DNA from: Nemertoderma westbladi
Lineage: Eukaryota > Animalia > Xenacoelomorpha
Reading direction: 5' to 3'
Assembly (NCBI GenBank): GCA_032718475.1
Contig: JAUCBJ010007802.1
Location: 1 to 58,532, forward strand
Length of the DNA stretch: 58,532 nucleotides
The notes under the pieces are model-generated. The model searched no databases, was not told the DNA's origin, and worked only from the letters and a program-made list of their open reading frames with translations. Positions 5,484 to 58,532 of this stretch are shown piece after piece. Both the position numbers and the translations under genes were made by a program. The stretch's first letter is position 1. Each line of letters starts with the position of its first letter.

Positions 5484-5559
5484 TCTTAAACTATACTGTA
5501 TTATTATCTATATCTATAAGCATTATATTATAGAGTTATTGGGCAATATATATAATATT

Positions 5560-6237: not shown

Positions 6238-6709
6238 ATATCTCCTTCCTCCTCTTTTCTCCCTTCATCGATCGACCAATCATACTGGTATCGTGGTATG
6301 AATCATACCGCTTCCTAATAAACCTCCCCACCCTTTACTGTTAATCTGGATGCCTATATTCGTGTCCGCATCTCCTGTCCATATACCATTGTGTTGGTAT
6401 TTATAATAGCAACACCCATCTCTTTGTCGTTGATTACATAATCAACCACCGATAATTTCCTTAGGTCCACGACCCGATATAAGGACTAAAAGGATACGCG
6501 GCTAATCTGTGAACAACTGGTACCATTGTGTGTCATAAATCTGGTTGTTCACCTCCCTTAATAATTGGGGATAAATTAATTTGGAGATAATCTTCGAATG
6601 ACATAATCCTCCTACTGAGATCGTATTTTAAACCTTGTTGAATGTGTCATAGGTTTTCCTTGCCCTCTCCCATCGATGGCGGAAAACATGTTAGGCGTGC
6701 AACAGGAAT

Positions 6710-8485: not shown

Positions 8486-8563
8486 CTGTTTAGAGTATTT
8501 TTGTATTTTAGAAACTGTGATTTTGTATATTTTATAGACTTAAATCCCATTTTCTGGGAGCGG

Positions 8564-9770: not shown

Positions 9771-10088
9771 TCAATTGAATTGGTACCCAAGGTGTACCAA
9801 TACCGTGTTTTTCACTGGAATTTTTTGAAAACAAAAAAGTTTACTTTTTTTTGTTAACATTATATTAGTTATCGTAGCTAGTGTTTTTAAGGAGCTAGTG
9901 AATTATTTACTAGCTAGTTATAATACGTATTTAAAATGTTTATCGGTTGATATTGATTCGGTTGATCGGATGATTATTGATTTTTTTAAATGTATGAATA
10001 GCTACGCAATTAGTATAAAGATAAAAACTGTTCTACCACAAACTCTACTGCACCACCAACTGCTTATTTAATATAGTTAATCGAATAA

Positions 10089-13545: not shown

Positions 13546-13619
13546 CCGCTCCCAGAAAATGGGATTGAAGTCTATAAAATATACGAGATCACAGTTTCTA
13601 ATATACATAAATACTCTAA

Positions 13620-20891: not shown

Positions 20892-22249
20892 GTTTGATTG
20901 TACAGTTGAATGCCTACTGCTATAGTTACAGTTAAAGCAAGTCTAGTAATTCAGTAAGACTGTTGGCCTAGTACCGGTAATTAATTGCAATATATTAGAA
21001 TACCGGTATACACTTATAGTATATATAAGTATAACAGACTAGATTTGTCACAGAGTACCGATATATAATTTTAGCACAAATATATATAAATATATAATAG
21101 GCCTATCGTGAATACCGGTATACAGCTGACACTTATAGTATATATAAGTATAATTATTACTAGAATTAATTACAGAATACCGGTATGATTTCAGCTCAAA
21201 TTTATAGAAATAAATATAATAAACCTATTAGAGATACCGGTATATCAATTATTTAGGATAATTGAATTTCTGAAATTATAAGTTACTTAGTTACTTGAGT
21301 TTACTTTGTTACCGTTATGCAAGCAGTAGTCCAACTGATATTGTGACCTACTTGTTGTATGGCAGGCCTACTGATTTATAAATCTTTGGAGTTGATTTAT
21401 AATATATATATATACCCTGATAAGGGATTTCGTTACAAGATTGAAATAGGTGTTACTATTTCCGGCAAAATACCACTACACAGAAGCTAAGCGCTTTCAG
21501 TGAAGTACTACTTATGGGACACTAAACAGAATAATTCTACTGGCCTACGTTACTTATTTACTAGTTACTTACTATTGGTGAGATTACAATCTCTAATAAA
21601 CACACAAAACGTTACGTACAGAAAATTTTTAGGGCAATTTTACAGGGAAACTACTAACCAGTCTAACAAAGGGTTAGATCTTCTGGCTATTACAACGAAC
21701 AGGATACTACGGTATTTGAAAATAATAAGTAGAAGTAAATACTGCGTTGTCTAGATAGGAAAGTACCACCGCCTGACGACCTACAGCCGTATCGCTATAG
21801 GTACAACGTTATGTATCTACGGAGTGTTCCTACCTAGAAGTTAATTACCGCCGTCTACCAGAACGAGCGTGCCTATTAACCACTTTACAACACAATAATG
21901 CCTACACTAATTACTTTCGGAAAGCACTGTACACTAAACCCTAAATTAGGTACAGGTACTTGTAAAAACAGATAACCAGTAGTTAAATATACTTGAACAG
22001 TTAAAAGAACCACAGCATCTGCTGGAGTGACCGGGGCACTGAGTCACCAGTCTTTACCTACGCCAAGCAGCCCGTGTAGTACTGGGGTTAATTTAACTAT
22101 AACGGTATGTATAACAAACACAATTACTGTAGGAATAAACTTGGGGACATGAATGTTGCGAGTAATCGCATAAACTCTGAATAATAAATATTACGCTACC
22201 CGTACAGAATACTCAAATAAAATACAAACCGGATGCTGACAAACTACCA

Positions 22250-22740
22250 TTAAGCCTAAATAAACCACAGGATGTGCAGATTCCGAAACTTGTTAGTGAG
22301 TATGCGTGCTAATACGGTAGCGCGGCTTATTCTTTACAGGGGTTGACCTTACAACTTACGAGTTGCCCCAACTTACTAACTGGCACCTATCAGACTCTCT
22401 ACACACGCGGCAATCTCTTCAGACCCAACAACAGCTAGGCAACAATCCAGCCTACAAAATATCTAAATAATACTATTACGGTATCTGAACGGACTATACA
22501 GACAGTACAGTATAAACGCTGACGGACTACTATCAAGCCTAAATAACCACAGTATATGCAGATTCCGAAACTTGTTAGTGAGTATGCGTGCTAATAAGGT
22601 AGCGCGGCTTATTCTTTACAGGGGTTGACCTTACAACTTACGAGTTGCCCCAACTTACTAACTGGCACCTATCAGACTCTCTACACACGCTGTAATCTTC
22701 AAGCCTAACAACAGTCAGACAACAGTCCAGCCTACAATGA
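22250..22740. repeat. ~200-bp direct duplication in the 5' UTR of element B
   Basis: aagcctaaataa...ctctctacacacgc...cagcctacaa occurs at ~22252-22458 and ~22535-22737. Confidence 0.85.
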
Positions 22741-23053
22741 TCTGAACAATCTGAGCAGACTTACACGTCTTCAGCTCAATATTAACTTACTAGGAAATAA
22801 AAACTGACAGAAATAAACCTAAGTAAAATCCCAATAAAAACCAGGCGTCCCCGATTTAGTATCAAGACCTACCGGTATACAATAATCAAAATCGAATAAT
22901 ACTAATGTACTTGCACAGCAATACCGGTTATGACAGTTGGGCCTACGGACCTACGGTAGTAGTACCGGTTATGACAGTTGGGCCTACTGACCTACTGGAG
23001 TGCCGGTATTTTCAATCTTATTGCTTACCGCAAATAAGATCGATAGCTATTAT

Positions 23054-24330
23054 TGTACGCGCTTTTATAGACCTTCAGCAGTTTAACCTGCCGAAATTTA
23101 TATGTCTTTATTGATAAACTGCCTTTTATAAGATGACAAGATTTAATACAAAAACAAACCAAAAACATTAGCCGAAGCCAGTCCATGCGCGTCCAAATGA
23201 CCCGTTTATAACACCGGGAGACTGGATTCGTGGGCTTAAATTTATTTGCGGTCAAGCCTACTGTATTATTCGATTGATTACTAATATATAATCTCTGACA
23301 AATATTATTCACTTTCGGGAAATATTAGCAGTTCCTTTTAGGACGTGGCGCTCTACCTATGTAAACAGAGTTATGACTGATACTACACACAACGATATGG
23401 CTTAAATTTCAAGCATAGGGCGCATTCTTTAGGAATGCTTTATTATCAGATCCAATCACTTTACAATCACGCACGCTACCGGTAACGCACAACACTGCTC
23501 ACTGATATGCCGACAGTTACTGACTTTGATCAGGTATAAAGAGATATGCACTGGACTCAGGTAGTGTCTGTCAAACAACATTAGATTCACTACAAACACA
23601 ATAATAAAGTCGCAATTGTTGTACATAACCTTTCTCTCTAACCTGTAGTGTATCAAAGATATTGGGAAAATGTGGGTTGATTATTGATATTCTTCAACTA
23701 ATAACATCCAATTATACTGATACAAATTACAAACAGTAAAAGCAGTATGACGGTAGGTTAAGATATAATTAGATTGCATTGAATTAAGATCGATATAAAG
23801 TGATATGAATCGAGTTGATTTGTTAATAGCGATAATAGCTATGCTTTCTATAATTTAGCCTACTAATGTTCTTACAAAAGGGCAGAAACATTGCGTCATT
23901 CCAGCCGATCTTCAGGCAGTATGGAACGACATAAACACTGAGTTTGGGAGCTGCTGTAGGTATCTCTTCAAGGAAAACGCAAATCGCCCTGATTGGTTGT
24001 TAGACCAAAACAAAGGAACCAGGAGTCCAATGAGAGCTCCCTCCACGTCATCATCCAGCTGGGAGATGTCGTAATCAGAATCCTTCCCTTGACATAGTGA
24101 CAGTGAAATGCCGCATTGCGGGGTTTGTACCCTGCTACGTCCGCATAAAGCACACATTCAGAAGAATCTATTTTATGTCCGTTAAAAACACTTATACAGC
24201 ACCCCGAGGGCTAGGGGATCAAATTATATCTGTAAACGCTTTTACAGCAGGTTTCAGAGTATTTTAGCGTATGGGGGGAAAACTGGATCGCGGGGCGAAG
24301 GACCAGTTGCATCCCACAGAAGCTTTTACA
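23054..24330 (-). repeat. 5' LTR of element B
   Basis: Begins TGTAAAAGCT at 24330 on the minus strand and ends GCGCGTACA at 23054. Confidence 0.95.
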
Positions 24331-24415
24331 CTTGGCTTTGTTGTTGTCTTAATGAATACAGTATGTAAGGTATAGATAGATTAGTTAATAATATTGATAT
24401 TATTAATTATTATTT

Positions 24416-28900: not shown

Positions 28901-30973
28901 CTACATCACGGTAACATTACGGAACTGCTGAAGAGTAACGGCACTTAGGAATGCTGGAATCGAACAGTTCTGCGAGTTGTTTAAGTATTCCTCGGCTAAC
29001 CCAGACAGACTAGAGGCGAATTCCGACTCAACAAGACACAGTTCCCCTGAGTCCAGTCGCTGGAACAATAAATGGTCGTCCTCTCTGTCCGAGTAAATCG
29101 GTTTCAGTTTGTACCAATCGGGCGTCTTATTGGTTATATCGTAACCAAGGAGACGGTAAACAACCTCCCTCAGTGTGTGCGCTCTCTTCCTAAACGCCTC
29201 CCCTACCTCCTTCATGCTTTTCTCCTTCTGTTCGATGACTTTCTGAAGTTCCTTGACGCGCTCTGAGTCCACCGAGAGGGACACATCGTTACCCACCGTC
29301 TGGCTCATCTCGTGTTCCGCCACTATTCTGGAACGCAGCGCTTTATTATCGTTCCTCAGCCGTTCCATCTCGGCTCGCATATCTAGCCGAGCCGTTGCCG
29401 ACGGGTTCACGGTCAAATGGATCACCTTGAGGGCTGTTGGATCGAAGTAACCCTGGTTGTTGTATAACTCAAGAAGATCCTTGAGTCCCTCGGTCTCCGT
29501 GACTCTATCCTCAAACTCCTTGACAAGGTCTGCCTTCTCAGTCTCGAGATCTGTAATCCGTTGACGCAGTTCCACATTAACTTCCTTATTGAATCGATCC
29601 GATAGAGGCGTCTCCGACTGGCTACTATTGGCTTCCTCTCTAACAACCTCCCCCATCCCTTCCACCTTACTCTGCAGCCTCTCAACCTCTTCCTCCAGAG
29701 CTGCATTCACCTCCCTATACTCCTTGATCACTCTATCCATATCTTCCAACCCCGCGCTCCCATTGGCTAGAACCTCATCATTAGAGTAGCTATCCAATAT
29801 ATTCCTCAAACTATTCCGTTCTAGAACAGTTACATTCACTTTCCTCTGCAACTTCTTTATCATCTCAGTCTGTACTCTATTCCGATGGTTGGCCTCCAAC
29901 AATCCTTTATCCGTATCCCTATTAGTCGCCCTCTCATTGGCTAACTCCATCTCCAAATTCTCCATTGCGACCCGCAGCTTACTCTCCCTGTCCATAAGAA
30001 CGACCTCCCGTCTCTGTAACTGAGTGACCTGCACAGAGTTCACGGTCTCCGGGATATTAGAGGATAATTTTACCAACTTATCCTTTAATTCGCCATTCTC
30101 CATCTCGAGTACTAACAGCTGTTTCACCTGGTTCTCCGCCCTATTCAACTTCTCCTTTAGCGATTCCTTCTCCTCCTCCAACAGGTATCTGTTGGACTCC
30201 GCCGACCTCAGCAGTTCAACCTCAGTCTCCAACTGGTTGCACTTCTTCTCCAACTCCTGTGCATGCGAGGCGTGACTCTTAAATATATTCTTCAACGTAT
30301 TGTCTTCCTCCACGCGCTCGGCTTTCGACTTGTACCGCTTCTCTCTGTCGAGCGAATTGTCAAGGTCTTTCTTAACATCGTTGTAATCACTCACCCGGTC
30401 TTCCATATCATCCAGTTTCTTATTTAGCGAATCAATCGATGCGTTCTTAATCTTTATTTCCAGATTTGTTTGAGAAAGTTCCATTTGTAAGTTAATTATT
30501 TCCCTGGCAGTATTTATTTTTAAATTACTCAACGTCTGATCGACTTCAGTATATTTCTCTTCGATCGCGATTTTCTCTCGATTCAAGGCGTCTATTCGAT
30601 TATCATATTCCAGTTTAATAGAAACAACTTGATCTCGTAGATGAATATTTTCTCCTTCCAAAAGTTCGAGTTTATCAGCCAATAACGAGACCCGGCCTTT
30701 AGTAACCGCGGTGTTTCTGACTTCCCGCTCCATTCTATCTTTGGAGATTTCGACATCGCGATCAGCTTCGATCTTCCGCTTTTTAGCTTCGGTTTCTAAA
30801 CTATTTACTTTATGCTGCAGTTGTGTAACGAGTGCTTTACTGTGACACTCGTTTCCAGCATTCAGCCTCCGATATAAATCGGTGGATGATGTGTGGGCAA
30901 TTTTGGCAGCCAAGGGATTTTTAGCAGCAGTGACACCGGTACCGGTATATCTAGACTGGTGTCCTCTATCCAT
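28901..30973 (-). CDS. MAD1L1: Mitotic spindle assembly checkpoint protein MAD1, single exon (~690 aa)
   Basis: Long coiled coil, the Mad2-interaction motif KVIHLTVNP, and a C-terminal RWD-like domain (REVVYRLLGY...YKLKPIYS...LLF...ESEF...SIPAFLSAVTL). The first ATG in the ORF is at 30973. Confidence 0.9.
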   Translation of the reverse strand: MDRGHQSRYTGTGVTAAKNPLAAKIAHTSSTDLYRRLNAGNECHSKALVTQLQHKVNSLETEAKKRKIEADRDVEISKDRMEREVRNTAVTKGRVSLLADKLELLEGENIHLRDQVVSIKLEYDNRIDALNREKIAIEEKYTEVDQTLSNLKINTAREIINLQMELSQTNLEIKIKNASIDSLNKKLDDMEDRVSDYNDVKKDLDNSLDREKRYKSKAERVEEDNTLKNIFKSHASHAQELEKKCNQLETEVELLRSAESNRYLLEEEKESLKEKLNRAENQVKQLLVLEMENGELKDKLVKLSSNIPETVNSVQVTQLQRREVVLMDRESKLRVAMENLEMELANERATNRDTDKGLLEANHRNRVQTEMIKKLQRKVNVTVLERNSLRNILDSYSNDEVLANGSAGLEDMDRVIKEYREVNAALEEEVERLQSKVEGMGEVVREEANSSQSETPLSDRFNKEVNVELRQRITDLETEKADLVKEFEDRVTETEGLKDLLELYNNQGYFDPTALKVIHLTVNPSATARLDMRAEMERLRNDNKALRSRIVAEHEMSQTVGNDVSLSVDSERVKELQKVIEQKEKSMKEVGEAFRKRAHTLREVVYRLLGYDITNKTPDWYKLKPIYSDREDDHLLFQRLDSGELCLVESEFASSLSGLAEEYLNNSQNCSIPAFLSAVTLQQFRNVTVM

Positions 30974-31949
30974 TTTTATCACATACAGACATAGGCCTAC
31001 TACAGTACTATTGGTACTCACTAGTCTGTTTGTACTGGTAGGGGTAAGTATAAGTTTGGTTTTGACCTAGGTACATAGCAGCATAGCTGCACTGCCTACA
31101 GTCAGATAGATCTAGAACGTTGTGTATTTAATTAATAGAATAAATGGCCTGCAGCGGAAGCAAATACATGCAAAATTCGAATGCCCATATCTCAGCTATT
31201 TCCCAACCAAATTCAAATATTTTTACATATTTGGAATCCTTGCACGGTCAGCTTTCTACAAGTACCAACAAATCACTAAATCTTTGAAGAATAACTGCGG
31301 TGTAACTGGTGCAATATCGATGGAGACACTTTTTTTAAAAGCTTGTACAGTAGCTAAAGAATGAAAGCAAAAATAAAAATTCTGGCTCACCCACGTTAGT
31401 TAGCTAACTTAGCTAAGTTAACTAAGTATAAATATGTTGTTTTATGGTTCCCGTACTCAAACTAATTAAACACGAAAACCGAAATTGAATCACCATTACA
31501 AGAAAAACCCCATAATAAAATCTTACATTGGGCGACGGTGTGGCTCTATATTGATTGTTAGGCAGAGCGATCAACATTGCCAAACAATCAATATTCTTTA
31601 AAACGTTAAAACGGACATCGGAAAATAAATGAGGAATTTCTGGTCGTTGGTGTACTTGTACTTATGTTACTATTATCATTTTTGGACAGAAATAATGACA
31701 GTCCCTCAGCAGCACATACATTAGTTCATGATTTTATGCAGCCATTGTTGTACAAATAAGCGGCAGCCAATAAGTCATTATTTATACAAAAATATCAATA
31801 TAATTCAGCAAAATATCTATATAATTCACCAAACTATTTATCGAGATTATAATTTACCCAAAAATGTAAATTGTAGCCACTGTAGTAACCAGGCTTTTTG
31901 CAGCCAAAAGAATGCGGATGTTTTAGAAAGACCATATGGCTACATTCTA

Positions 31950-36511: not shown

Positions 36512-38018
36512 CTATTGATGAATATCATGAACTAAGAGTTGACTATTAATCGAGACTAATTCTTCGAGAATTTCTAAAGAAACAGCCAACAGTTGCGATG
36601 CGAAACCATCCCCTGAGGAGAGCGCTGTCTGACAACGACTCCTCCAAGCTGCTTCCAACGGAATTACCTCGTTAGAGCCATTCATCAACTGGTTAACCTC
36701 GTCCGCTGATAGATTCAGTATAGACTTAGCCACCTCGGTGGCGCGACTCAGACTATCATCAGACGAAGCGGTCGTATTGGCTGTAACCTTGGCAATCTCG
36801 GAGCGACCGCGACGCCATCTGTGCAGCAGCTCCCCTAAGAGACTCTGAACGAAAGCCGTGAACTCCTCAATAGTGGCAGAGCTCGCCGTCTGATGGCGCT
36901 GCTTACGCCCCTCATGATCTTCCAATTTAACGATCTGATCTTTACAAACTATCTCGAGTTTTCTGTTCAACCTCTCCAGCTCCATAACGTTGTTCTTCAG
37001 TCTGTCCACCTCCTTATTCAACCTACTGACCTCCGCATTGGCCTCTCTATGTAACTCAACATCTCGAGTCCATTGCTTTTTAACTAACTCGATCTGACGT
37101 CTTCCCAACAAAACCTGCTCGTTGAGTTCCTTTATACGGTTCTTGGTATCATCATTAACCTTCTCATCTACGTCCTTCATCTCAACAACGCCCTTCATCT
37201 TACTCCTTAATGTCTCCACTAACTGTCGCTTCTGGTTAAGGTCCCGCTCCTTTCGGTTCAGCGAATCCCTCATCCTTCCCAACTCCGTCTGAAGTCCATC
37301 TCTCTCGACCTTCAGCGATTTAATCTGGGCGTTCTGTTGGGCGATCTGGGCGTTCTGTTGGGCGCCCCTCTGCACCACCAGCTGGGAGCCGCCACCCACT
37401 CTGCCCGTTTCGCTACGCGTTTCGTTCCGTTTCGCTTCCAGAACCGCTTTCTGCCCCAGTAGTACCTCAACCTCCGCTGTCTGACGTCGGACGGTTGTCC
37501 GCGACGACTCCAGCCGACCTCTCAGTGTCCGACACTCGTCCGACAGCCGTCGGACCTCTGTTTCTTCCTCGTTTGCCCGTCGTCTTGCCTCCTCCTTAGC
37601 TGCGCGAAGTCCCTCCACCGTAGAACCGAGGGTCCGTAATCTGCGCTGCAGTTCCACCACTAGCCGTCGGTCAATGACCCCACGATTTCGATGACCATGG
37701 TTCCGCTGACTCAACCCATGGTTCCGCTGACTCATCCCATGGTTCCGCTGACTCATCCCATGGTTCCGATGATTCAGGTTTACCCGAGCGATGTGCTTCC
37801 AGTAGGAGGCGAGTTGCCGCCACTCCTGCAAGGCGGTTATCTTCCTGTCCATCGGTTCCTCCAATACATTGTCATCATTAACCTCATCTGGTTCCCTCGG
37901 CCCAGGGAATCTCATTGGTTCACTGAACCTTACCGGCTGTTTCTTCCGTTTAAACACTCCCGAATTACTTTGCGATATTCCGTCTCTCTTTACAGAGGTT
38001 AAACGATCTTTATAATAT
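36512..38018 (-). CDS. CNTLN: Centlein-like protein, last exon
   Basis: Coiled-coil ORF with the C-terminal AKSILNLS motif resembling centlein. The acceptor TTTTATATTACAG|A (phase 2) is compatible with the donor at 42520. Confidence 0.7.
37693..37770 (-). repeat. 21-bp in-frame coding repeat (RNHG[M/L]SQ, ~3.5 copies)
   Basis: Tandem copies of ccatggttccgctgactcatc. Confidence 0.85.
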
Positions 38019-38690
38019 CTGTAATATAAAACCATTAAATATTTATAATGCAAAATTACAATCACTATCTCTTTGGCCATTGTGTAAATGGAAACGAGAC
38101 CAAATTTGTAATAAATATTAATCAACCAGCACTATAAGTATAACATAAAAGATTTATGGAATCTGTAACAATTTACCACATATCATAAAAATCTCACAAT
38201 TTATGTAAGAGTTACAACAGTATGAGTAATTTAATAGAGACGTCTACTGTAATTTATAAAATACTAGATTTTGGCATGAAAAACATAAAAAAGAAACCCG
38301 TTACGTAAGGATCGGCGAACATTGTATGACATCATTAACTCATTCACACTGCGAATAAATATAAACTTTATTTCAATCAATTAAACTTGGAATATTGCAA
38401 TTAATAGGTTTGTTGAGGAAATAATATTAATAATAAATAATAATATTAATAGAATCATAAAGCAATATAAAGTGTAATTAATTATTATTTAATTAATAAT
38501 GTTTAACTTAACGTAGTTAGTACGTTAGATGGTGTACTAACTACTACTAATTATTAAAGGCAAAACATACACTTCGGTCGGTTATGAAATTCTGTCAACT
38601 AATTCTTTGTAACTCGAAACCCCAAACATATGGTAATGTGGGAAGGAACCTCCAGCGGAAGTAGAATAAATAAACACCTACGGAATGCAA

Positions 38691-38849: not shown

Positions 38850-41800
38850 CACCTATTGGAACAAATTTCGCATCCTATTGGAACAAAGTTCGAATCCCAT
38901 TGGAACAAAGTTCCCATCCTATTGGAATACAGTTAACATCCTATTGGAACAAAGTTCAATCGTTTTGGAACAAAGTTCGCATCCTATTGGAACAAAGTTC
39001 ACATCCCATTGGAACAAAGTTCACATCCTATTGGAATACAGTTAACATCCTATTGGACATCATTTTGGAACAAAGTTCGCATCCTATTGGAACAAAGTTC
39101 ACATCCCATTGGAACAAAGTTCACATCCTATTGGAACAAAGTTCACATCCCATTGGAACAAAGATCACATCCTATTGGAACAAAGTTCGCATCCTATTGG
39201 AACAAAGTTCACATCATATTGGTACAAAGTTTGCATCCAATTGGAACAAAGTTCCCATCCTATTGGAATACAGTTAACATCCTATTGGACATCGTTTTGG
39301 AACAAAGTTCGCATCCTATTGGAACAAAGTTCACATCCCATTGGAACAAAGTTCACATCCTATTGGAACAAAGTTCACATCCCATTGGAACAAAGTTCGC
39401 ATCCTATTGGAACAAAGTTCACATCCTATTGGAACCAAATTCGCATCCTATCGGATGCAAAGTTCGCATACCATTGGAACAAAGTTGATATCATATTGGA
39501 ACAAAGTTCACATCCTATTGGAACAAAGTTCGCATCCTATTGGAACAAAGTTCACATCCCATTGGAACAAAGTTCGCATCCTATTGGAACAAAGTTCACA
39601 TCCTATTGGAACCAAATTCGCATCCTATCGGATGCAAAGTTCGCATACCATTGGAACAAAGTTGATATCATATTGGAACAAAGTTCACATCCTATTGGAA
39701 CAAAGTTCGCATCCTATTGGAACAAAGTTCGCATCCTATTGGAACAAAGTTCACATCCTATTGGAACAAAGTTCGCATCCTATTGGAACAAAGTTCACAT
39801 CCCTCATTGGAACAAAGTTCACATCCTATTGGAACAAAGTTCGCATCCTATTGGAACCAAATTCGCATCCTATTGGATGCAAAGTTCGCATACCATTGGA
39901 ACAAAGTTGACATCCTATTGGAACAAAGTTCACATCCTTATTGGAACAAAGTTCACATCCTATTGGAACAAAGTTCGCATCCCATTGGAACAAAGTTCAC
40001 ATCCTATTGGAACAAAGTTCGCATCCTATTGGAACAAAGTTCGCATCCTATTGGAAGCAAAGTTCACATCCTATTGGAACAAAGTTCACATCCCATTGGA
40101 ACAAAGTTCGCATCCTATTGGATGCAAAGTTCACATCCTATTGGAACAAAGTTAACATCTTATTGGAACAAAGTTTACATCCTATTGGAACAAAGTTCAC
40201 ATCCTATTGGAACAAAGATCACATCCTATTGGAACAAAGTTCGCATCCTATTGGAATAAAGTTAACATCTTATTGGGACAAAGTTCACATTCTATTGGAA
40301 CAAAGTTCACATCCCATTGGAACAAAGTTCGCATCCTATTGGAACAAAGTTCACATCCTATTGGAACCAAATTCGCATCCTATTGGATGCAAATTCCGCA
40401 TACCATTGGAACAAAGTTGACATCCTATTGGAACAAAGTTCACATCGAACAAAGTTCGCGTCCTGTTGGAACAATGTTCAAATCCTATTGGAACAAAGTT
40501 CACATCCCATTGGAACAAAGTTCGCATCCTATTGGATGCAAAGTTCACATCCTATTGGAACAAAGTTAACATCCTATTGGAACAATGTTCCCATTTTATT
40601 GGAACAAAGTTTGCATCCTATTGGAACAAAGTTCACATCCTATTGGAACAAAGATCGCATCCTATTGGAACAAAGTTCACATCCCAGATTCCATTTAAAC
40701 AAAGTTCACATCCTATTGGAACAAAGTTCGAATCCTATATGGAACAAAGTTAACATCCCAATGGAACAAAGTTCACATCCCATTGGAACAAAGATCACAT
40801 CCTATTGGAACAAAGTTCGCATCCTATATGGAACAAAGTTCGACATCCTATTGGAACAAAGTTCGAATCCTATTGGAACAAAGTTCACATCCCATTGGAA
40901 CAAAGTTCGCATCCTATTGGATGCAAAGTTCACATCCTATTGGAACAAAGTTAACATCCTATTGGAACAATGTTCCCATTTTATTGGAACAAAGTTTGCA
41001 TCCTATTGGAACAAAGTTCACATCCTATTGGAACAAAGTTCGCATCCTATTGGAACAAAGTTCACATCCCAGATTCCATTGGAACAAAGTTCACATCCTA
41101 TTGGAACAAAGTTCGAATCCTATTGGAACAAAGTTCACATCCTATTGGAACAAAGTTAACATCCCATTGGAACAAAGTTCACATCCTATTGGAACAAAGT
41201 TCGCATCCTATTGGAACAAAGTTCACATCCTATTGGGACAAAGTTCGCATCCTATTGGAACAAAGTTCACATCCCATTGGAACAAAGTTCGCATCCTATT
41301 GGAACAGAGTTCACATCCTATTGGAACCAAAGTTCGCATCCTATTGGATGCAAAGTCCGCATACCATTGGAACAAAGTTGACATCCTATTGGAACAAAGT
41401 TCACATCCTATTGGAACAAAGTTCGCGTCCTGTTGGAACAATGTTCACATCCTATTGGAACAAAGTTCGCATCCCATTGGAACAAAGTTCGCATCCTATA
41501 GGATGCAAAGTTCACATCCTATTGGAACAAAGTTCACATCCTATTGGAACAAAGTTTGCATCCTATTGGAACAAAGTTCACATCCTATTGGAACAAAGTT
41601 CGCATCCTATTGGAACAAAGTTCGCATCCTATTGGAACAAAGTTCGCATCCTATTGGAACAAAGTTCACATTCTATTGGAACAAAGTTCACTTCCCATTG
41701 GAACAAAGTTCGCATCCTATTGGAACAAAGTTCACATCCTATTGGAACCAAAGTTCGCATCCTATTGGAACAAAGTTCCCATCCTATTGGAACAAAGTTC

Positions 41801-42370
41801 ACATCCCATTGGAACAAAGTTCACATCCTATTGGAACAAAGTTCGCATCCTATTGGAACAAAGTTCAATCCTATTGGAACAAAGTTCACTTCCTATTGGA
41901 ACAAAGTTCGCATCCTATTGGAACAAAGTTCACATCCTATTGGAACAAAGTTCACATCCTATTGGAACAAAGTTCACATCCTATTGGAACAAAGTTCGCA
42001 TCCTATTGGAACAAAGTTCACATCCTATTGGAACAAAGTTCGCATCCTATTGGAACAAAGTTCACATCCTATTGGAACAAAGTTCACATCCTATTGGAAC
42101 AAAGTTCACATCCTATTGGAACAAAGTTCACATCCTATTGGAACAAAGTTCACATCCCATTGGAACAAAGTTCACATCCTATTGGAACAAAGTTCACATC
42201 CTATTGGAACAAAGTTCGCATCCTATTGGAATAAAGTTCACATCATATTGGAACAAAGTTCACATCCTATTGGAACAAAGTTCACATCCCATTGGAACAA
42301 AGTTCGCATCCTATTGGAACAAAGTTCACATCATATTGGAACCAAATTCGCATCCTATTGGATGCAAAAT
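38850..42370. repeat. 22-bp satellite, consensus ATTGGAACAAAGTTC(A/G)CATCCT, ~160 copies, intronic
   Basis: Continuous tandem array. The 22-aa periodicity cycling through all three frames confirms a 22-nt unit. Confidence 0.97.
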
Positions 42371-42520
42371 TTTCTAAATAATCAGCGGGAAGGAAGTCCG
42401 TTACTTTTAGGAAAAGATTTACCTTAGTAGGGTTTTGCAGACCCGCAGGCACTGCGGTCAAACTACACTGCGGTCAAAATAAACGCTGCAAATGTAAACA
42501 CAGCCCCGTCTCAACCCCAC

Positions 42521-44070
42521 CTGTTTAATTCGCGAACCCTCTGCAGCTCCTTGGCTTGGACTCTCAGGTCCCTCTCCAGGTCTACAACCGAAGCCTCCAG
42601 TCTCTCGTTGGCTTCATCCAACCCCAGACATCTCGTCTCCAACTCACCCACCTCACGTCCCAACTCATCGTTAACTCGTTCCAACTCGGAATCCGTCGTT
42701 TCTTCCGAACCTCCACGACGACTCTCGTAGTTCGTCCGGAGGTTTCGGTAGAATTCCGACGCGGTTCCAGAATCATCCCACGTTCCGAACTTATTCCGCT
42801 CGTCGTACGTCGCAATGACATCACGCAACTGCGAGTTATCGTCGCGGACCGACTCGAATTTCCCGAGAAGTTTCTCGTGCGAAACTCGAAGCTTCGAATA
42901 ATCGGAGGATGTTGCGTCGAGAGTTCTGCGGGTCTCCGCTAGGCGGCCGCGACAGACGGAGAGTTTACGGGACAACGAAACGGGATGGGCAGCCGACTGG
43001 GTGGGAGTAGCGACGGGAGGCACCGAGGAGGCGCGACGGATTCCTCGGGGTTTACTCGTACCGACTCGATCTGCCGACATAGAACGAGCTCTCCGTCGGC
43101 GAGTTTCTCTCTCGAGTTTGCGAATCAGTCGATCTTTCGACTTCAACTCGTCGCGGAGCCACTCGAAGTCATCCCGGGTGTTCGCTGTGGACCGACGCTC
43201 CTCCCGACGCCTCCGCTCCTCGTATCTCCTCCGGTACTCCTCAGTCTCCACTCTCAGCCTCCCCGCCTCCTCCCGCCACCGGTCGGATTCGCCCCTCAGC
43301 CTCTCGGCCTCCTCCCGCCATCGCTCCTCCTCATCCCGCAACCTCCCTCCCTCCTCCAACCTCCCCAACGTCTCGTTCTGCCGACTCAACCTCCCCTCGT
43401 ACTGTCGACTCCGTCGTTCCAACTCCTCGTACTCGCTCTGTAGATAGGCGAAGTCCCGCGTTGCTTTATCCAGCAGTCCGGCTTTCATCTCTAGTTCTCG
43501 GGTTCGACTCGCCAGTCGGGTTTCTACATCAACTGCCGAATTCTTCGCCGACTCCGTCGCCGACTCCGCATTCCGGACGCGGAGATTCAGTTCCCGTCTT
43601 TCGGAAGATAAACGCCGATTCTCTTCAAACAAATTTAAATTTTTCTGAGAAATAATTTTATTTTCCGTTATCAGTCTCTCTTTCTCCTCTACAAGTTTAC
43701 TCCTTCCGTTATCAGTATCAAAGTGTACTTTATGTTTGAGTTGCCCGGGCGGCTGCGGGTCAAATTGTTTAGTTCTATCTCCACTGGCAACCCGCGAGTA
43801 CCGGTCTAACTCCGATGTGAGTCTCTGCAAATCCTTCTCCATCGAGTTCAACGCTGCGTCCTTGGAATGTAGGATGTCGACGACCTTGCGGTCCTTCACC
43901 TCGGCGCGTTCTCTTTCCTTCTGGACGACGTCAGCGATTGCTGTGGTAACGTCTGGGTTGGATACCTGCATCCGTTTCCATAGCGACCAAACAAAGTCCT
44001 TATCGGATTCAGCGAGTTCCAGTTCATCGTGCAGCCGTTTGTTATCGGAGATTAGCGATTCGATATTCAT
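42521..44070 (-). CDS. CNTLN: Centlein-like centrosomal protein, first coding exon (spliced product about 1018 aa)
   Basis: The N-terminus DKDFVWSLWKRMQVSNPDVT...ERERAEVKDRKVVDILHSKD matches the centlein signature. Donor AACAG|GTGGGG at 42521/42520. Confidence 0.85.
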
Positions 44071-49304: not shown

Positions 49305-50648
49305 ATGGCAGCCCCAGATTTGGAAAAAGTTCTTGGTTCCGCGATGAAACTCAAGCTAATTAATGACGTGACTCCCTCTGTCGATCTATTCGATCTCAAT
49401 TACTACCGCGCTCGAATTGACTCACTATTTGCCTCCTTCCCCGAGCCATACTTCGTTCACGCAACTGCTGTCAAGGGCAACCCAATTCGCGGCGTCCTTT
49501 TGGTTGCTAAGGGGAAGGGCATGGGAGGGGAGTGCGCGTCGATATGTGAGGTAATCCACGTACTATCTCTGGGGATGTCGGCGGATAAGGTTGTTTACGA
49601 CAGCCCCTGTAAAACAAGGTACGACCTGAAACAAGCGCTGGACTTAGGAGTTATTATTCATCTGGACAATGATATCGAAATGGTTATTGTAGATGACCTC
49701 CTTAAAGGAGACTGCGTAGACTCTAAATCCAAGATCGGGCTTCGCATCAATCCGGTTGTTGGTTGCGGTGCCATTCACGGAATGTCTACCGCTGGGAAAA
49801 GTTCAAAGTTTGGTCTTCCAGTAACCGATGATACAAGAAATGATATTATATCGTTGTATGAAAAGTATAGCTGGTTGACTGGGATCCACATCCATGTTGG
49901 AAGTCAAGGAATTCCCATGGAGCTGTTTGTAAGAGGAGCGCGAGTCTGCATGGACACGGTCGCGTTGATAGAGAAGCGATGTGGTCGCTCGTTGCTAACG
50001 GTAGACATAGGCGGCGGTCTGTCTACCTCCTACACCGAAGCGAACGAACCAGAAGCGTTCCGGTACGCCCTCTACCGCCAAAGACTGGAATCCGCGGTAC
50101 CGGAGCTGTTTTCCGGTAAGTACCGGATAGTCACCGAGTTCGGAAGGTCGCTTCTACTGAAAGCCGGAACGACGGTGAGTCGAGTGGAACATGTTAAACG
50201 CTGGTTGTCCGATGTGAACCCCGTTGTGTTTGTACATGTTGGTTCAAACCAGTTTGTAAGAGAGGCGTACCAACCCGAGATCTGGTCCCATCGCTACTCC
50301 GTGGTTAGTAATACAGACATCCGAATAAAGCCAGATGGTACAGACCTTGTACTCCACGACATTGCGGGTCCCTTGTGTTTCCAGGGTGACTACCTAGCTA
50401 GGAACGTCCTTCTACCCAATGTGTCCACCGGTGATCTACTACTCATACACGACACCGGAGGGTACTGTATGGCTCTTTACTCGAAGTTTAACTCGATTCT
50501 ACCCAGTCCCGTCTATGGCTTCCAGCGCTTAGAGGACGACATTGAGTTTATTTGCTTCAAGGAAAGAGAAACGCCCCAGGAAACTTTGAGATTTTGGGGG
50601 CGGGAAATTCCCCGAACAATAAAGCCATGTAAAGAAGAAAATTTCTAG
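49305..50648 (+). CDS. lysA: Diaminopimelate decarboxylase-like fold-type III PLP-dependent decarboxylase, single exon (447 aa)
   Basis: AVKGNP (PLP lysine), ECAS..E, DSPCKT, GLRINP, SKFG, HIHVGSQ, DIGGG, EFGR, GPLCFQGD and DTGGY. The substrate cannot be proven from sequence. Confidence 0.8.
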   Translation: MAAPDLEKVLGSAMKLKLINDVTPSVDLFDLNYYRARIDSLFASFPEPYFVHATAVKGNPIRGVLLVAKGKGMGGECASICEVIHVLSLGMSADKVVYDSPCKTRYDLKQALDLGVIIHLDNDIEMVIVDDLLKGDCVDSKSKIGLRINPVVGCGAIHGMSTAGKSSKFGLPVTDDTRNDIISLYEKYSWLTGIHIHVGSQGIPMELFVRGARVCMDTVALIEKRCGRSLLTVDIGGGLSTSYTEANEPEAFRYALYRQRLESAVPELFSGKYRIVTEFGRSLLLKAGTTVSRVEHVKRWLSDVNPVVFVHVGSNQFVREAYQPEIWSHRYSVVSNTDIRIKPDGTDLVLHDIAGPLCFQGDYLARNVLLPNVSTGDLLLIHDTGGYCMALYSKFNSILPSPVYGFQRLEDDIEFICFKERETPQETLRFWGREIPRTIKPCKEENF

Positions 50649-51318: not shown

Positions 51319-52195
51319 CATGAAGGCGAACTCCAACCGATAAGTAGGCCTACCTTGAGTAGCTCCCCTTCATGGAGGCGAACTCCAACCGATAAGTAGG
51401 CCTACCTTGAGTAGCTCCCCTCCATGGAGGCGAACTCCGACCGATAAGTAGGCCTACCTTGAGTAGCTCCCCTCCATGGAGGCGAACTCCAACCGATAAG
51501 TAGGCCTACCTTGAGTAGCTCCCCTCCATGGAGGCGAACTCCGACCGATAAGTAGGCCTACCTTGAGTAGCTCCCCTCCATGGAGGCGAACTCCAACCGA
51601 TAAGTAGGCCTACCTTGAGTAGCTCCCCTCCATGGAGGCGAACTCCAACCGATAAGTAGGCCTACCTTGAGTAGTTCCCCTCCATGGAGGCGAACTCCAA
51701 CCGATAAGTAGGCCTACCTTGAGTAGTTCCCCTCCATGGAGGCGAACTCCAACCGATAAGTAGGCCTACCTTGAGTAGTTCCCCTCCATGGAGGCGAACT
51801 CCAACCGATAAGTAGGCCTACCTTGAGTAGCTCCCCTCCATGGAGGCGAACTCCAACCGATAAGTAGGCCTACCTTGAGTAGCTCCCCTCCATGGAGGCG
51901 AACTCCAACCGATAAGTAGGCCTACCTTGAGTAGCTCCCCTCCATGGAGGCGAACTCCAACCGATAAGTAGGCCTACCTTGAGTAGCTCCCCTCCATGGA
52001 GGCGAACTCCAAGCGATAAGTAGGCCTACCTTGAGTAGCTCCCCTCCATGAAGGCGAACTCCAACCGATAAGTAGGCCTACCTTGAGTAGCTCCCCTCCA
52101 TGGAGGCGAACTCCAACCCATAAGTAGGCCTACCTTGAGTAGCTCCCCTCCATGGAGGCGAACTCCAAGCGATAAGTAGGCCTACCTTGAATAGC
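51319..52195. repeat. 52-bp minisatellite, ~17 near-identical copies
   Basis: Unit GAGGCGAACTCCAACCGATAAGTAGGCCTACCTTGAGTAGCTCCCCTCCATG. Confidence 0.97.

Positions 52196-53021: not shown

Positions 53022-53059
<38 letters not shown>
53022..53059. repeat. (AAT)n microsatellite
   Basis: About 12 perfect units. Confidence 0.9.
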
Positions 53060-53691
53060 GTACTGCCATTTAGCAAACTAACAAGAGGTAACAACTAACA
53101 GTAAGCTGACGATACACGTAATCTTAACCTGTTCCATGAAAATAAACAAACTAACATCCACAAAGAATAGAAAGGAATTTAAGAGCAAAATTATTATTAT
53201 AAGCTAAGATATCAAACACCGTGTATCTCATAGCACCAATGTGTATCACCAGCATTGACATAGAGTTTATGTAATAAAGATACGAATACCTAAAGGAAAC
53301 TATTATCGTGGTTATTAGTCCTACTGAGAGACAACGACCCGTCCGTGGTGTCAGCCAATGGCGACCGGCCATACTTAGCCAAGAATTCGTTAATGTCTTC
53401 CCGACTTGTGTCGCTATCATCATCCCCGCTATCCTCATCGTCGGAGGGGAGATCAGCCGTGTCACTGCCGTCCTGGAAACAGAAGAGAAACTCTCAAAGT
53501 TGTGGTATATGGTAGGACTTTATGCGACGGTTGGGAGGTCAGTGGGGTAGGATATGAATAAATATAATTAATGATGAAATAATAATTAAATTTTCAAATA
53601 AAGTTTTATTAATCGTATAAAATCTACCACTTGATATGGTTGCAGCTCTCGTCTCTATGGCGATCGGATTTTGAAACCCCTCAATAATGAA

Positions 53692-53762
53692 ATACCGTAT
53701 AATAAAGTTTACCGTATAATAAAGTTTACCGTATAATCTAGTTTACCGTTTAATAAAGTGTT
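53692..53762. repeat. 17-bp short tandem repeat (TACCGTATAATAAAGTT, ~4 copies)
   Basis: Two perfect and two degenerate copies. Confidence 0.75.
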
Positions 53763-54159
53763 GCCGTTATCCCTACACCAGGGGGGAAAAACGCCGATGC
53801 TGGAGACGTGACTTAACAGACCACCGAGCCCCGGCCAGTCACCGGATATTGATTGTGGGGAGGGAATATTTTCTGAGATGCAAGTTTGCGGTTGATAAAA
53901 AGCTGCATTAGTTGGATATACTCTTTAATGTAACTTCCTATAGTTGAAACCCGTTCAACATCATTGAAACTTGATTAAGAATAATTTTGGGCTTCCCCAA
54001 ATCAATATACACCAAATATTCACAATAATTATACACGATAATATAAATCCCTACAGTATATTATTTAATAACCCACTGTTTGCTCAGAATTTTAGCCTAC
54101 CTAATGTTCTCCAGATTTTCCCTCGGTCCCAGTCTTAGTGCCGTAGTGTCGGTGTCGGT

Positions 54160-55060
54160 CGACCCTGTCGCGTGTCCGTTCCACCCCTCACGAACCCCGA
54201 AGGGAACGATCATCGAGAACCAGCACGGCTTGGCTAAGGGTCGGTCCAGTCGGTAGACTCTGTCGCGTATCCGTACCACCCCTCTCGAACCCCGAAGGGT
54301 TCGGTCATCGAGAACCAGTACGGCTTGGCTAGGAGTCTGTCGTGTCGGTGGACCCGTTCGCGTGTCCGTTCCACCCCTCACGAACCCCGAAGGGTTCGAT
54401 CATCGAGAACCAGAACGGCTTGGCTAGGGGTCCGTCAGTTCATCACAGAAACCCAACCACCTAGGCTTTCCGAGTCCGTTTCAGGCTCGTAGTCGCTTCG
54501 GCAGCCGAGAAACTGCTCCGAACAGTCGGTAGGCCAGTAGAGTCTAGTCGAGTCTAGTCCTTTGTCTTTCGACCCCATCGCGTGTCCGTTCCACCCCTCA
54601 CGAACCCCGAAGGGAACGATCATCGAGAACCAGTACGGCTTGGCTAAGGGGTCTGTCGTCGGTTCCCGTCGCAAATCCCAGTACAAGCAGTCAGCGTTCC
54701 GAGTTCTTTTCAGTCTCGTAGTAGCTGCCGTTGACCAGAGACCGCTAAGGGCAGTTCTCGTCAAACCCGTCCTGTGGCCAGCCCTTTCGCATGTCCGTCC
54801 CACCCCTCACGAACCCCGAAGGGATCGGTCATCGAGAACCAGTACGGCTTAGGTCAGGGGGCAGTCGTTAGTTGGCCACCCGTTCGCGTGTCCGCTCCAC
54901 CCCTCACGAACCCCGAAGGGAACGATCATCGAGAACCAGAACGGCTTGGCTACTAAGGGGCCGTCGGTGCCCGTCGCAAATCCCTGACACAAGCAGTCAG
55001 CGGTCCGAGTTCTTTTCAGTCTCGTAATGGCTGCTGTTGGCCAGGGACCGCTAAGGGCAG
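54160..55060 (-). ncRNA. Array of structured RNA hairpins: 6 type-I (K-turn/UUCG) and 2 type-II
   Basis: Type-I copies at 54160-54243, 54255-54338, 54350-54433, 54571-54653, 54781-54862 and 54874-54962, with covarying closing stems. Type-II copies at ~54665-54754 and ~54969-55060. RNA function is inferred. Confidence 0.55.
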
Positions 55061-55535
55061 TCCTTGTCCTTTAGGCCTGGCGCATTACCAAATCCACCCC
55101 TACAGGCAGCAGGAAGTTGGCCAGGGCCTAATAGTACTCAGGCTAACCTGAATACTGCTTGCATTTTCCATCCCCCCCTGGCCCTTATAACTATGAAATT
55201 ATTCCCGTACCCTGTAAGTTGCCCCAAAGTTCGCCCATAAATCGCCCCCAGTTTCTTGAATGTGCCCAAAACCCATGGTCCCGCACCCAGTAGTAATATC
55301 GGAATAATCAATTTTAAATAAATACAAAAATATTCAACTCGCGTTATGGAAAGTTGAAATACCGCGAACAGTCCCCCCCAATGACCTTCGTGAAGTCTGT
55401 CGGTCGATTGAGTTTGCGTAGGTCATTCCCAATATAAAAAACCCAAATTTAATATTGCATAGTTTTTAATTAATTTGGCCTAGAGTTTGTATAAAAATAA
55501 ATGTTCGATAAATGTTCCTGGAATATCCCGATCCA

Positions 55536-58114
55536 CTATTTCTTTCTCTGATACGCCTTTCGTCTCTTCGCCCGTCGACTCTCATCGATCGCTATGGCTG
55601 GTAGAGGAGCGTCAACATCCATCGTGAGTAACGCTTCGGCTTGTCTCCTGGCGGCTCTTCCTTTCGAAGGCATCGGGATCATGTCGGTTCGTCTCTCCAA
55701 CTCAGATTTGCGTGCCTCTAGGAACCATTCTCCGTCACCGAACTCCTCTTTATACGAGTATAATCGTCTAATGACTTCAAATGGACCGAATAATCCGGCG
55801 CTCAGTAGCAGATCCACGTAATGGAAAGGTAGCGTGGCCGACGTGTGGAGGCGTTCCGGGAAGGAGAAATATCCGCACGCCATCTCCTGCGCGATATTCC
55901 GAGCGTTTCTCCGAACAGGTCTTTAAGTGGCTGTTTGCGTATGTCTCAAACATGACCATATTGCCCATAGCGGTAACGTCTTTGGTTGGACATTTGATAT
56001 AGCAGCGGGGGCTAGAGGAATGTCCACGGAAACCGCACGTGGTGCAGAGGTTATAAAGGATCGGGCAGACGGAAACGTCGTGGCCCGATGTCGCGCAGTA
56101 TGGGCAATAGAGTATACCGAGGAGCTGGAGGCATGAATCGGTAACCCGATTCCTTCTGCTGCGTGGGCACTGCTCCGAACCGCAGTCGCCGCATACCTCC
56201 AACTGCATCTCTCGACCAGGAAATATCGGAATCGGGACGCCGACGTAGTATTCGAGTCGTCGGTCGCTCTTCGGAATATTCTCGGTGGTCGGTAGCCCGC
56301 GGAATGCTAGGCTTTTGCGTAATAGGTTCTCGCTCCGATAACCTTCTTTGTGTCCCGCTGGTCTCAACTCGGATGACCGTTTCTGGCGGTGGATCCATTC
56401 AGTTTGCTCGGCGTACCAACGGGTTAGTCGCATAGGGTCCTGAGGAACGGCGGGTGTAGTAGCCACCGCTGGTCGGCGAAGAGGTGCCGGGGTTTTCGAC
56501 GGAGGGATACCGAGGAGATCGTCGGGGGTCGGCGCATCGCTGGGGCCCTCCTCGATCAGTATCGCTGCGCGGGTCCGTTGGTGGCTGGTACTCGGAATCT
56601 CCGACGACCAATCTTCGCCACCCGGGAAAGGATACGGGGATAACCGTTGGCATATGTCGCCGAAGTCGCTCAATGCAGCTGTAGTGGCTACCTCCCTCGC
56701 GGGGCTACCGGAGCCGCGTGGGGTGTAAACGCCTGCTCTCTTCATCGGTTCGGCCGAGGCAACCCGTTTGGCGGCCGGTCCATACGCGGCCTCCGGCTCG
56801 AGTTGTCGCTTCGGGGTGGAGAGTAGAACACCCTCGTTTAGCCATATCTCTTCCCCTTCCGAGGAGATCAGAGGCTCCTCCGCACCGAGAAGTTCGGTAA
56901 TCGTAGGGATGTCGTAAGGTCCGCTCTCGTCCCAGGAATCGATAACGGCGGGTGTTTTCGATTCTCCCGGTGTAATGTTCTCGACCGCTTTAAACGCGTG
57001 GTTTATAACCTCGTTCCAGTCGTAGTCGACGAAGGAAAGGGGGACCGCCGTAATAAGGTTATCGAGAGTTTTACAGATAAACTTAGCGACGGTGTAGCAC
57101 TCCATAACGACGTAAACGTAGTTCCGTCGATCAGGATTCTCCCACCTTTGGTGTATCGTCCACTTCCGATCAACGTCCTTCCATCGACCCTCTCGCTCGC
57201 TCTTTATTTCCAATCCCGGGTATCCACCGTATATTTTATTATAGTCCCGGAATTTCTGGGGTTTGAAGTCGATACCGCCGTTGAGCACAGCGAGGTAGCC
57301 GATCCCGGATTTCGTCGGTCTCACCTCTTGGAATCCTCGCATGAACTCGGCGAATCGTAACCAGGCTAGTAGCGTTTGAGTGTCGATGCAATGGCTAAGG
57401 GCGTTGAGGTCGTCTCGTCGGTTTCTTCCTGCAGGGGCGTTCGCGTAGTCGTTCCGGACGTCCGCCTTGATATCCGACCCGATTTTAATGACGTCAAAGT
57501 CGAAGAGGATCTTTTGGATTTCCGGAGGCAGCAACCAGATCGCTCCGGCTGCCTGCACTTCCTGTCTGGGTGTCGGGAATATTCGGCACACCAGTACCAA
57601 ACCGTCCAGGGTTCCGAGGACGACGACTAAGGATCGACCGTATTCTTTCGCCCCGTACTTTTCTTGGTAGTCGTCTCGGTTTTGGATAATCGATACGCGT
57701 TCCTCTCGAAGCGTTTCCCCAGTGGGCGAGGTACGTACTCTTGTCGTCGACGAAACTTTGACATCTCGCCAACGTAATCGCTTTCGAGGTGGGCGTCGCG
57801 TTTCCCTCGTTGTCGTAGATCAAACATCGGGATCTGTAGACGCTCTGCCGGAACGTTTCCCAAAACGACGAATCGTCCCCTCCGGTTGCCTTTGCGTTCC
57901 GAGTTCTTTTCAGTCTCGTACTAGCATCAGCTAACCGGAGGGCTCGTAGATTCTTAGAATCCGGTCCCTCTCGCCCGGTGAATTTAATGACTCGCACGTT
58001 CTCATTTAGCAGGGTGCTCCAATTTGTATCAAAGTCAGGGGATCCGGGTTGCGAATATTCCAGTAGATCTATCGTGTTACGTAATTCGCCGATAATTTGG
58101 CGATTTGGGTCCAT
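55536..58114 (-). pseudogene. DEDDy-like 3'-5' exonuclease + triple zinc-module cargo gene (~860 aa when two frameshifts are corrected)
   Basis: ORF 57494..58114 supplies ExoI-like LIYDNEG. The next frame supplies VVVLGTLDGLVLV, LPPEIQKILFDFDVIKIGSDIKADV (ExoII), IDTQ, GIGYLA and YVVME (ExoIII position), then CGDC/CPYC..H..CP/CTTC..GH. ORF 55536..55883 continues homology (GYFSFP ~ GVYAFHP of ORF 6710) and ends in a basic tail. The frameshifts may be real or assembly errors. Confidence 0.7.
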
Positions 58115-58532
58115 ATTTACGATTATATCCGTTACAAATTAGATCAGTTAATTATAAGTCCAGAAAGTCTGAAACTATAGCGATAGCAGAATAATTCAGT
58201 TTTTTATTTAATTCAGTTTATTAATAACATTGCTATATAGGCATCTATCATCTTATTGCTAATACATTCAGCATTTACAGTTACTATAGCTATACATAAT
58301 ATCCAACCAGTTTTTTTATGACTTTTTTGTCCTTTTCTTTTTTCTAATTCTTTTCTTTGACCTTTTTTATACCTTTTTTTGTCTTTTTTCATTTCATTAT
58401 TATTTCATCTTATTTCATTTATTTCCACGTATATTTCAACATTTAGTTCCACCATTTATTTCACATTTATTTATTTCCACATCATCATTTGGGTTTATAG
58501 CCCCCCGGCTATCATCATTGGTTATAAGCGCA

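Follow-up and report, generated by a model that had tools for sequence, protein, structure and literature searches.

RxRE of HTLV and TAR of HIV lie in the R region of the long terminal repeat (LTR), and retrozymes and other ribozyme-bearing LTRs hold a structured RNA motif within the repeat. In HERV-K, the structured export element RcRE is borne by the LTR in U3 (PMC11379458, PMC2661877, available text). R lengths given for retroviruses in the accessible part of PMC3601003 are 11–150 bp. Accessory reading frames of DEDDy type are known in LTR elements, for example ORF3 of the bdelloid elements Juno and Vesta, and the available sections of that source call the activity of such retrotransposon exonucleases undemonstrated (PMC5408684). 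Among kink-turns (K-turns), C:G at both −1b:−1n and 4b:4n are the Kt-7-like states, in which Mg2+ is enough for folding; a G at −1n is the main determinant of Mg2+ folding, all variants tested fold with L7Ae, and the box C/D K-turn of A. fulgidus has G:C at both positions (PMC5689011, in excerpt). A C at 3b favours K-turn folding (PMC4382518, likewise in excerpt).

We analyzed a window of 58,532 nucleotides (Nemertoderma westbladi contig JAUCBJ010007802.1, positions 1–58,532, forward strand), in which an initial annotation had placed an array of six K-turn/UUCG hairpins at 54160–54962, just 3′ of a nuclease gene. We find that the array lies inside the 3′ LTR of a retrotransposon, its near end ∼480 bp beyond the end of the gene at 55536. 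The element and its surroundings comprise:

53759–55370, minus strand: 3′ LTR of 1,612 bp, TGTT...AACA (termini, depth steps and a contig joint of run X4 at 53759).
55371–55379, minus strand: polypurine tract directly before the LTR (sequence).
55536–58114, minus strand: accessory gene for a DEDDy-like 3′-5′ exonuclease with CCHC-like knuckles (ORFs, profile and relative searches).
53676–53758, no strand assigned: 17-bp minisatellite flanking the LTR end, the insertion site (repeat search, contigs).
53031–53472, minus strand: host exon, probably the last, with its coding part at 53290–53472 (X2 splice at 53472, stop at 53290).

Contigs of four sequencing runs, two of them deep DNA runs, were mapped to 53300–58532. 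Summed contig depth in the two deep runs, which marks a very abundant repeat and is not a copy number, is 13–38 in the flank, ∼13,000–46,000 in the element interior, and ∼49,000–115,000 from ∼53800 to ∼55390. The terminal part of the element thus has two to three times the interior depth; DNA depth approximately halves above ∼55390 and drops to flank level below ∼53770. Together, the depth step, the polypurine tract, the TGTT/AACA termini, and the joint at 53759 place the array inside the 3′ LTR. The TG...CA repeat, the polypurine tract, and the raised depth are those of an LTR retrotransposon, of which the window contains a single LTR, the 5′ part of the element falling beyond it. An LTR start near 55170 was dropped in favor of 55370 on the depth step and the termini. 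A 3,245-nt X2 contig departs from the window at 53472, exactly at a strong acceptor made up of a polypyrimidine tract and AG, and the retrotransposon is located ∼290 bp upstream of this acceptor in the same sense; it therefore likely resides in a host intron. Contigs of runs X2 and X6 stop at 53775 and 53772, 13–16 nt before the LTR end, where a poly(A) signal is absent nearby.

Elsewhere, the window contains MAD1 (Pfam E 2e-66) and two other long uninterrupted coiled-coil ORFs (28901–31021, 36512–38125, and 42511–44070, minus strand), two of the three presumably centlein-like. A 22-bp satellite of 3.5 kb (38852–42362) separates coiled-coil ORFs. Also present are a 52-bp satellite (51319–52195, 17 copies, 98% identity) and, in this animal genome, an intronless PLP-dependent decarboxylase of the ornithine/diaminopimelate family (49305–50648, plus strand, Pfam E 4e-35).

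The accessory gene is broken twice in this copy, near 57.7–57.8 kb and near 55.9 kb. Its protein scores 0.92 to a PF01612 cluster in the atlas and has three HMMER relatives (E 6e-7 to 2e-4); ExoII- and ExoIII-like motifs align, ExoIII with E. There is no Pfam match, and the AlphaFold model (pLDDT 36) is unusable. The window contains two related elements:

12269–24331, minus strand: sister element, Bel/Pao (DUF1759 gag match with E 3e-13, LTRs, target duplication).
1–9774, plus strand: sister element with an accessory exonuclease/knuckle ORF at 6710–8485, then an LTR at ∼8565–9772.

The first sister has 1,278-bp LTRs that are 100% identical, a 5-bp target duplication (CCAAG), a gag-protease ORF (16542–20891) without reverse transcriptase or integrase match, and a decayed accessory gene, and it looks like a recent non-autonomous copy. 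The second is split by a DNA transposon at 1682–6241 (694-bp inverted ends, ORF 3216–5483); ORF 858–1487 likely belongs to this sister. Despite the gag of the first sister, we assign the array-bearing family to Bel/Pao only as probable, because accessory exonuclease ORFs move between lineages according to the accessible text of PMC5408684. Homologous pieces of the accessory gene precede the LTRs of both sisters, and neither LTR has an array or K-turn match by descriptor or covariance model. The array is therefore family-specific, and nuclease-bearing elements do not consistently carry it, as the initial annotation had supposed they might. A 19-of-20-nt match between 54091–54110 and 23854–23872 in a sister LTR (both minus strand) is reached by 4 of 200 shuffles and is possibly chance.

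Repeat comparison located six ∼84-nt units within 54157–54965, which share 76–100% identity with the first copy and which we call type A:

54157–54246, minus strand: hairpin A1 (covariance model, folding).
54252–54341, minus strand: hairpin A2, 3b.3n = C.A (covariance model, folding z −3.1).
54347–54436, minus strand: hairpin A3 (covariance model, folding z −3.8).
54567–54657, minus strand: hairpin A4 (covariance model, copy variation).
54776–54866, minus strand: hairpin A5, 3b.3n = C.U, base loop degenerate (covariance model, motif alignment).
54871–54965, minus strand: hairpin A6, irregular closing stem (covariance model, motif alignment).

A covariance model of type A returned exactly these six matches window-wide, all on the minus strand (94–112 bits; the next best has 13 bits), so that the number and position of the units initially reported are borne out by two methods. 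Read on the minus strand, the outer part of a unit consists of a closing stem, a small NUA/GAN loop, a 2-bp GC helix, and a 4x4 loop, and the inner part of an 8-bp stem, a 4-bp C-stem, a GAU bulge, GA/GA, and a 7-bp arm closed by cUUCGg. C-stem, GAU bulge, tandem GA/GA, and cUUCGg are found in 6/6 units. The standard K-turn signature, a 3-nt bulge followed by tandem G.A and A.G between C and NC helices, is likewise present in all six and on the minus strand only, in agreement with the K-turn geometry and cUUCGg loop described at the outset. Across the whole window, a K-turn descriptor gave 11 minus-strand matches, six of them the type A units, and one plus-strand match outside the array. On the minus strand, four G.U pairs are present without exception, and their plus-strand equivalents would be A.C mismatches; these pairs fix the strand of type A as minus, the element sense already proposed. 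The core sequence quoted in the initial annotation is exact for A3 only. The remaining units differ from it, for example in 3b.3n (U.U in 4/6, C.U in 1/6, and C.A in 1/6) and, in three units, in having U.U/U.U at positions that had been drawn as A-U pairs.

In 6/6 units, −1b:−1n and 4b:4n are C:G. The type A K-turns are therefore Kt-7-like and not of box C/D type, as had been claimed, this arrangement being the reverse of that in A. fulgidus box C/D. Judged from their sequence, they are standard, probably self-folding K-turns, potentially open to binding by L7Ae-family proteins. U and C are both common at 3b among genomic copies. The Rfam search called for at the outset brought no meaningful family: between 53000 and 58532, at E up to 10, it returned three matches (E 6–9) far below gathering scores. 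Hammerhead, HDV-like, twister, pistol, and hairpin ribozymes were rejected by eye against their known motifs. A SECIS element was ruled out as well, since these carry unpaired AA at the apex of a long helix II and type A has a 7-bp arm capped by UUCG.

Intervals between the units, described initially as variable linkers, are in the case of the long ones three hairpins of a second type, type B, and a fourth copy is located within the accessory reading frame:

54446–54515, minus strand: hairpin B1, diverged, 21 predicted pairs of which 5 are G.U (folding, alignment).
54665–54751, minus strand: hairpin B2 (folding, alignment, copy variation).
54968–55059, minus strand: hairpin B3 with a long stem, 5x4 loop, CGAG/CUCG helix, and GAAA-capped tip (folding z −4.4).
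57880–57941, minus strand: hairpin B0 in the 5′ part of the accessory reading frame (31/32 nt identical to B2).

From its 5′ end, the array thus reads B A A B A B A A A, nine hairpins in all. Type B copies have in common a GC helix, a 5x4 loop, a CGAG/CUCG helix, and a short tip, with a GAAA cap in 3/4. Their outer stems differ widely in sequence, yet 4/4 fold, with 20–33 pairs around one conserved tip; each has 1–5 G.U pairs and folds better on the minus strand. The internal loop of B0 is AGUA/GAA, the loop-E/sarcin-ricin signature, whose G is changed in the LTR copies. At their base, B2 and B3 have the NUA/GAN loop of type A.

The presence of GAAA-capped tips in type B invites a comparison with the 11-nt GAAA receptor (core C2-G10, U3.A8, A4-A5 platform), since the type A loop GCCAAG/CACGC is laid out like it, with C2-G10, A8, and the AA platform in place. 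Type B tips might dock in the 4x4 loops of type A, with the K-turns, which as Kt-7-like motifs fold without protein (PMC5689011, in excerpt), serving as corners, and such a protein-free scaffold would compact or dimerise the genome. U3, however, is C in 5/6 units and the sixth breaks the 1–11 pair, so the receptor assignment was rejected; most A8-U3 changes drop GAAA binding beyond detection (PMC10243134), and the GAAA tip stem has 2 bp only and is lost in B1. We regard docking as most improbable.

Transcription of the LTR was assessed from run X2, which was automatically classed as DNA but behaves as cDNA. We read it as such because its contig leaves the window at a splice acceptor and because it has specific variants: four of the 40 variants shown stand at 100% in X2 and at 0% in both deep DNA runs. 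These four variants fit what is expected from a few expressed loci. The following features delimit the predicted transcript:

55160, minus strand: likely capped transcription start, U3/R border (one X2 contig end).
55184–55189, minus strand: TATA-like box TATAAG, −29 to −24 of 55160 (sequence).
54064–54069, minus strand: candidate poly(A) signal ATTAAA, the first after the array; a second candidate is at 53924–53929 (sequence).

At 55160, an X2 contig terminates in 17 letters matching the template-switch oligo plus an extra G, and an extra G after this oligo is treated as a cap signature (PMC9245221, available text). The first 7 genomic letters at 55160 are the oligo's own first 7, and a chimeric contig end is possible because genomic and oligo letters coincide. 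Weighing both, we consider it likely that 55160 is a true transcription start. Minus-strand transcription, on which the proposal of an RNA array had been made to depend, is likely present and begins ∼100 nt upstream of the array (one contig). AATAAA is absent from the LTR; if ATTAAA at 54064–54069 is used, U3 would measure 210 bp, R ∼1.1 kb, and U5 ∼280 bp. The R so delimited contains ten AUGs, six of which lie in K-turn bulges and open frames of 23–62 codons.

With the start and the candidate poly(A) signal flanking the array within one LTR, every LTR, solo copies included, might make a ∼1.1-kb capped RNA consisting of R only, or ∼85-nt pieces trimmed by the exonuclease. Working in trans, such RNAs would be a decoy for host proteins of RNA silencing or K-turn binding, or else precursors of small RNAs; roles in 3′-end processing or silencing have been raised for such exonucleases (PMC5408684, in part). 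X2 depth over 54175–55224 is several times that of its neighbors, and in the DNA runs depth stays even along the LTR, but this is a weak hint, because contig depth cannot rank parts of a gene, and R being counted twice per transcript and overlapping contigs also raise depth. Type A and B stems are interrupted every 2–8 bp, unlike substrates of Dicer or Drosha, Rfam returned no match, and the array is absent beside the sister exonucleases. Pol III microRNA cassettes of retroviral LTRs have T-run terminators after their hairpins; 55160–54040 on the minus strand contains no TTTT run, which rules out such a cassette. A decoy or precursor role thus appears quite unlikely. Units acting as DNA, through transcription-factor sites (CACCC) downstream of the start or through single-stranded hairpins causing reverse transcriptase to pause and favoring strand transfer, would account for the CACCC box that is invariant in 6/6 type A units, and LTR tandem repeats often regulate transcription according to the accessible part of PMC3601003. 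The repeats described there are in U3, though, while the present units likely come after the start, and G.U pairs, UUCG loops, K-turns, and compensations point to RNA structure; a DNA-level role is very improbable.

To what extent pairing has been maintained can be read from differences between the units. The closing stems had been described as covarying, and compensatory changes do exist, in closing and inner stems, but only 3 of 27 type A pairs are changed on both sides, a count equaled in 41 of 500 shuffles; 90% of cells are paired. The covariation score is reached in 9/500 and the paired-cell value in 3/500 shuffles. Covariation of the inner stem, also claimed, comes down to a single pair (U-A twice, A-U once) that is broken in 3/6 units. 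The two apical pairs are unpaired in 7/12 cells. Among the three gap-free units, the probability that differences placed by chance match the compensations is P = 0.014, 0.064, and 0.0004, the pairs being non-independent. Overall, type A covariation is real but thin, with few compensatory changes, and is suggestive rather than proof because the six sequences are related. Folding energy against shuffles is in clear excess in 2/6 units (z −1.3, −3.1, −3.8, −1.5, +0.7, and +0.2), a result that non-canonical elements, where they make up much of a structure, can bring about.

These numbers bear on the main rival explanation, in which slippage multiplied an ancestral A plus B without benefit, the gene being a possible source of B, and the array is neutral. 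Compensations would then stem from hairpin-templated repair during reverse transcription, and a single unit may or may not function. A2 and A3 speak against it, since their 13 differences include three compensations and no pair gained or lost, as do the four type B stems, all of which pair despite low sequence similarity and contain many G.U on one strand. Folding of the whole array no better than that of shuffles (z −0.3), the many tandem arrays in the window, and the sister LTRs without an array are what it would lead one to expect. Copy variation was examined in contigs of the four runs over one A+B pair (3% share cut-off, 23 variant rows). In the type A core, 5/69 sites vary (both sides of the inner pair that is broken, the apical U/A positions, two in number, and 3b, U/C), and the whole element has 379 variant rows over 5,233 bases at a 5% rather than 3% cut-off. 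The core thus varies at about the element average, in line with neutrality, and these data alone do not show a stronger core constraint. Among mapped contigs, the UUCG loop and GAU bulge, the GA/GA pairs, and the B tip are free of variants of at least 3% share; that the invariant positions are those of the non-canonical motifs is not readily explained by neutral multiplication. In one rare contig end, a C-stem side is changed to another pyrimidine run that is still able to pair with the G run. Contig joints skip 237–716 nt within the array, and one contig of depth 5.7 contains a single A and a single B, with 44 letters that fit both sides; this would suit slippage, although a collapse in assembly may have produced the contig. 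Element copies likely differ in unit number. We consider neutral multiplication somewhat unlikely.

Taken together, our analysis favors the array as a putative multi-copy cis-acting RNP scaffold that works like TAR or RcRE without belonging to their families, to which we assign a probability of about 0.5. The compensations, the motifs confined to the minus strand, the type B stems that pair despite divergence, the invariant motif positions, the cDNA start with its TATA box, the X2 variants, and the precedents of LTR-borne export elements and DEDDy accessory ORFs count for it; core variability near the element average, the weak covariation count, broken inner pairs, array-less sisters, neutral-looking tandem arrays across the window, and a start site taken from one contig count against it. 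Nine hairpins in a transcribed R would form a multi-copy handle that loads proteins onto the element RNA. Polyadenylation after 54064 would yield the ∼1.1-kb R and give each full-length transcript one array per end. The K-turns are predicted to fold in Mg2+ and to offer host L7Ae-family proteins (15.5K/Snu13, eL30) a binding site. The knuckle/exonuclease protein of the element itself may load on the type B hairpins, a proposal made because its coding region contains a further copy of this hairpin. A loaded leader with ten AUGs, six inside K-turn bulges, might keep full-length RNA from scanning ribosomes and decay, and this RNA could be routed to export or packaging. Unit number would drift through template jumps of reverse transcriptase between repeats. 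A bolder version, in which the exonuclease/zinc-knuckle protein recognizes type B both in its gene, as an operator, and in the LTR, the K-turns recruit host L7Ae-family proteins, and module number in the 1.1-kb R is an evolvable dial between translation, decay, and packaging, is unlikely; if true, it would represent RNA control in the style of complex retroviruses in an invertebrate retrotransposon, built from parts new to the role.

If selected, the RNP scaffold proposed here would be a natural multi-K-turn RNA in a mobile element, with an R several times longer than the retroviral ones listed. It also offers the accessory DEDDy exonucleases of retrotransposons a concrete candidate as target, and with two unit types, a copy within the gene, and a naturally varying 3b.3n, the question lends itself to probing and reporter assays. 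A literature search by title and start of abstract, in a scope that mostly excludes subscription journals, returned no relevant K-turn array in an LTR or retrotransposon. Exact DNA patterns gave 0 matches for unit A in viral and metagenome contigs and 0 for unit B in viral contigs; of the candidates from protein-based locus searches, none of the 34 viral or the 145 metagenome ones was confirmed, and word-indexed protein searches gave no match, or P0001 only.

Comparison with snoRNA box C/D K-turns reveals a shared U at L3 and, in 4/6 units, U.U at 3b.3n, whereas the boxes here read AUGAUCG/GUGA, −1b:−1n and 4b:4n are reversed, and there is no Rfam snoRNA match. Unlike retrozymes, the array matches no ribozyme family. 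With the Kt-7 class, as described in the available text (PMC4382518, PMC5689011), type A shares the 3-nt bulge, the tandem G.A/A.G, and C:G at −1b:−1n and 4b:4n; 3b.3n is here U.U, C.U, or C.A and not A.G, and the motif occurs as six repeats in a mobile element. Juno and Vesta are likewise LTR retrotransposons with an accessory ORF for a DEDDy-type exonuclease, but the protein here is longer and has C-terminal CCHC-like knuckles, and the element is probably Bel/Pao; an LTR RNA array goes unmentioned in the available text on Juno and Vesta ("repeats" and "hammerhead" each occur 0 times; PMC5408684). RcRE, RxRE, and TAR share with this locus a structured LTR RNA in an element that codes for an accessory, probably RNA-binding, protein. 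Here, that protein is a predicted exonuclease/knuckle protein and not Rev-like, the predicted R is ∼1.1 kb against the 11–150 bp given for retroviruses (PMC3601003, in part), and the RNA consists of nine modular repeats of two types, with K-turns and likely in variable number, in an invertebrate retrotransposon.
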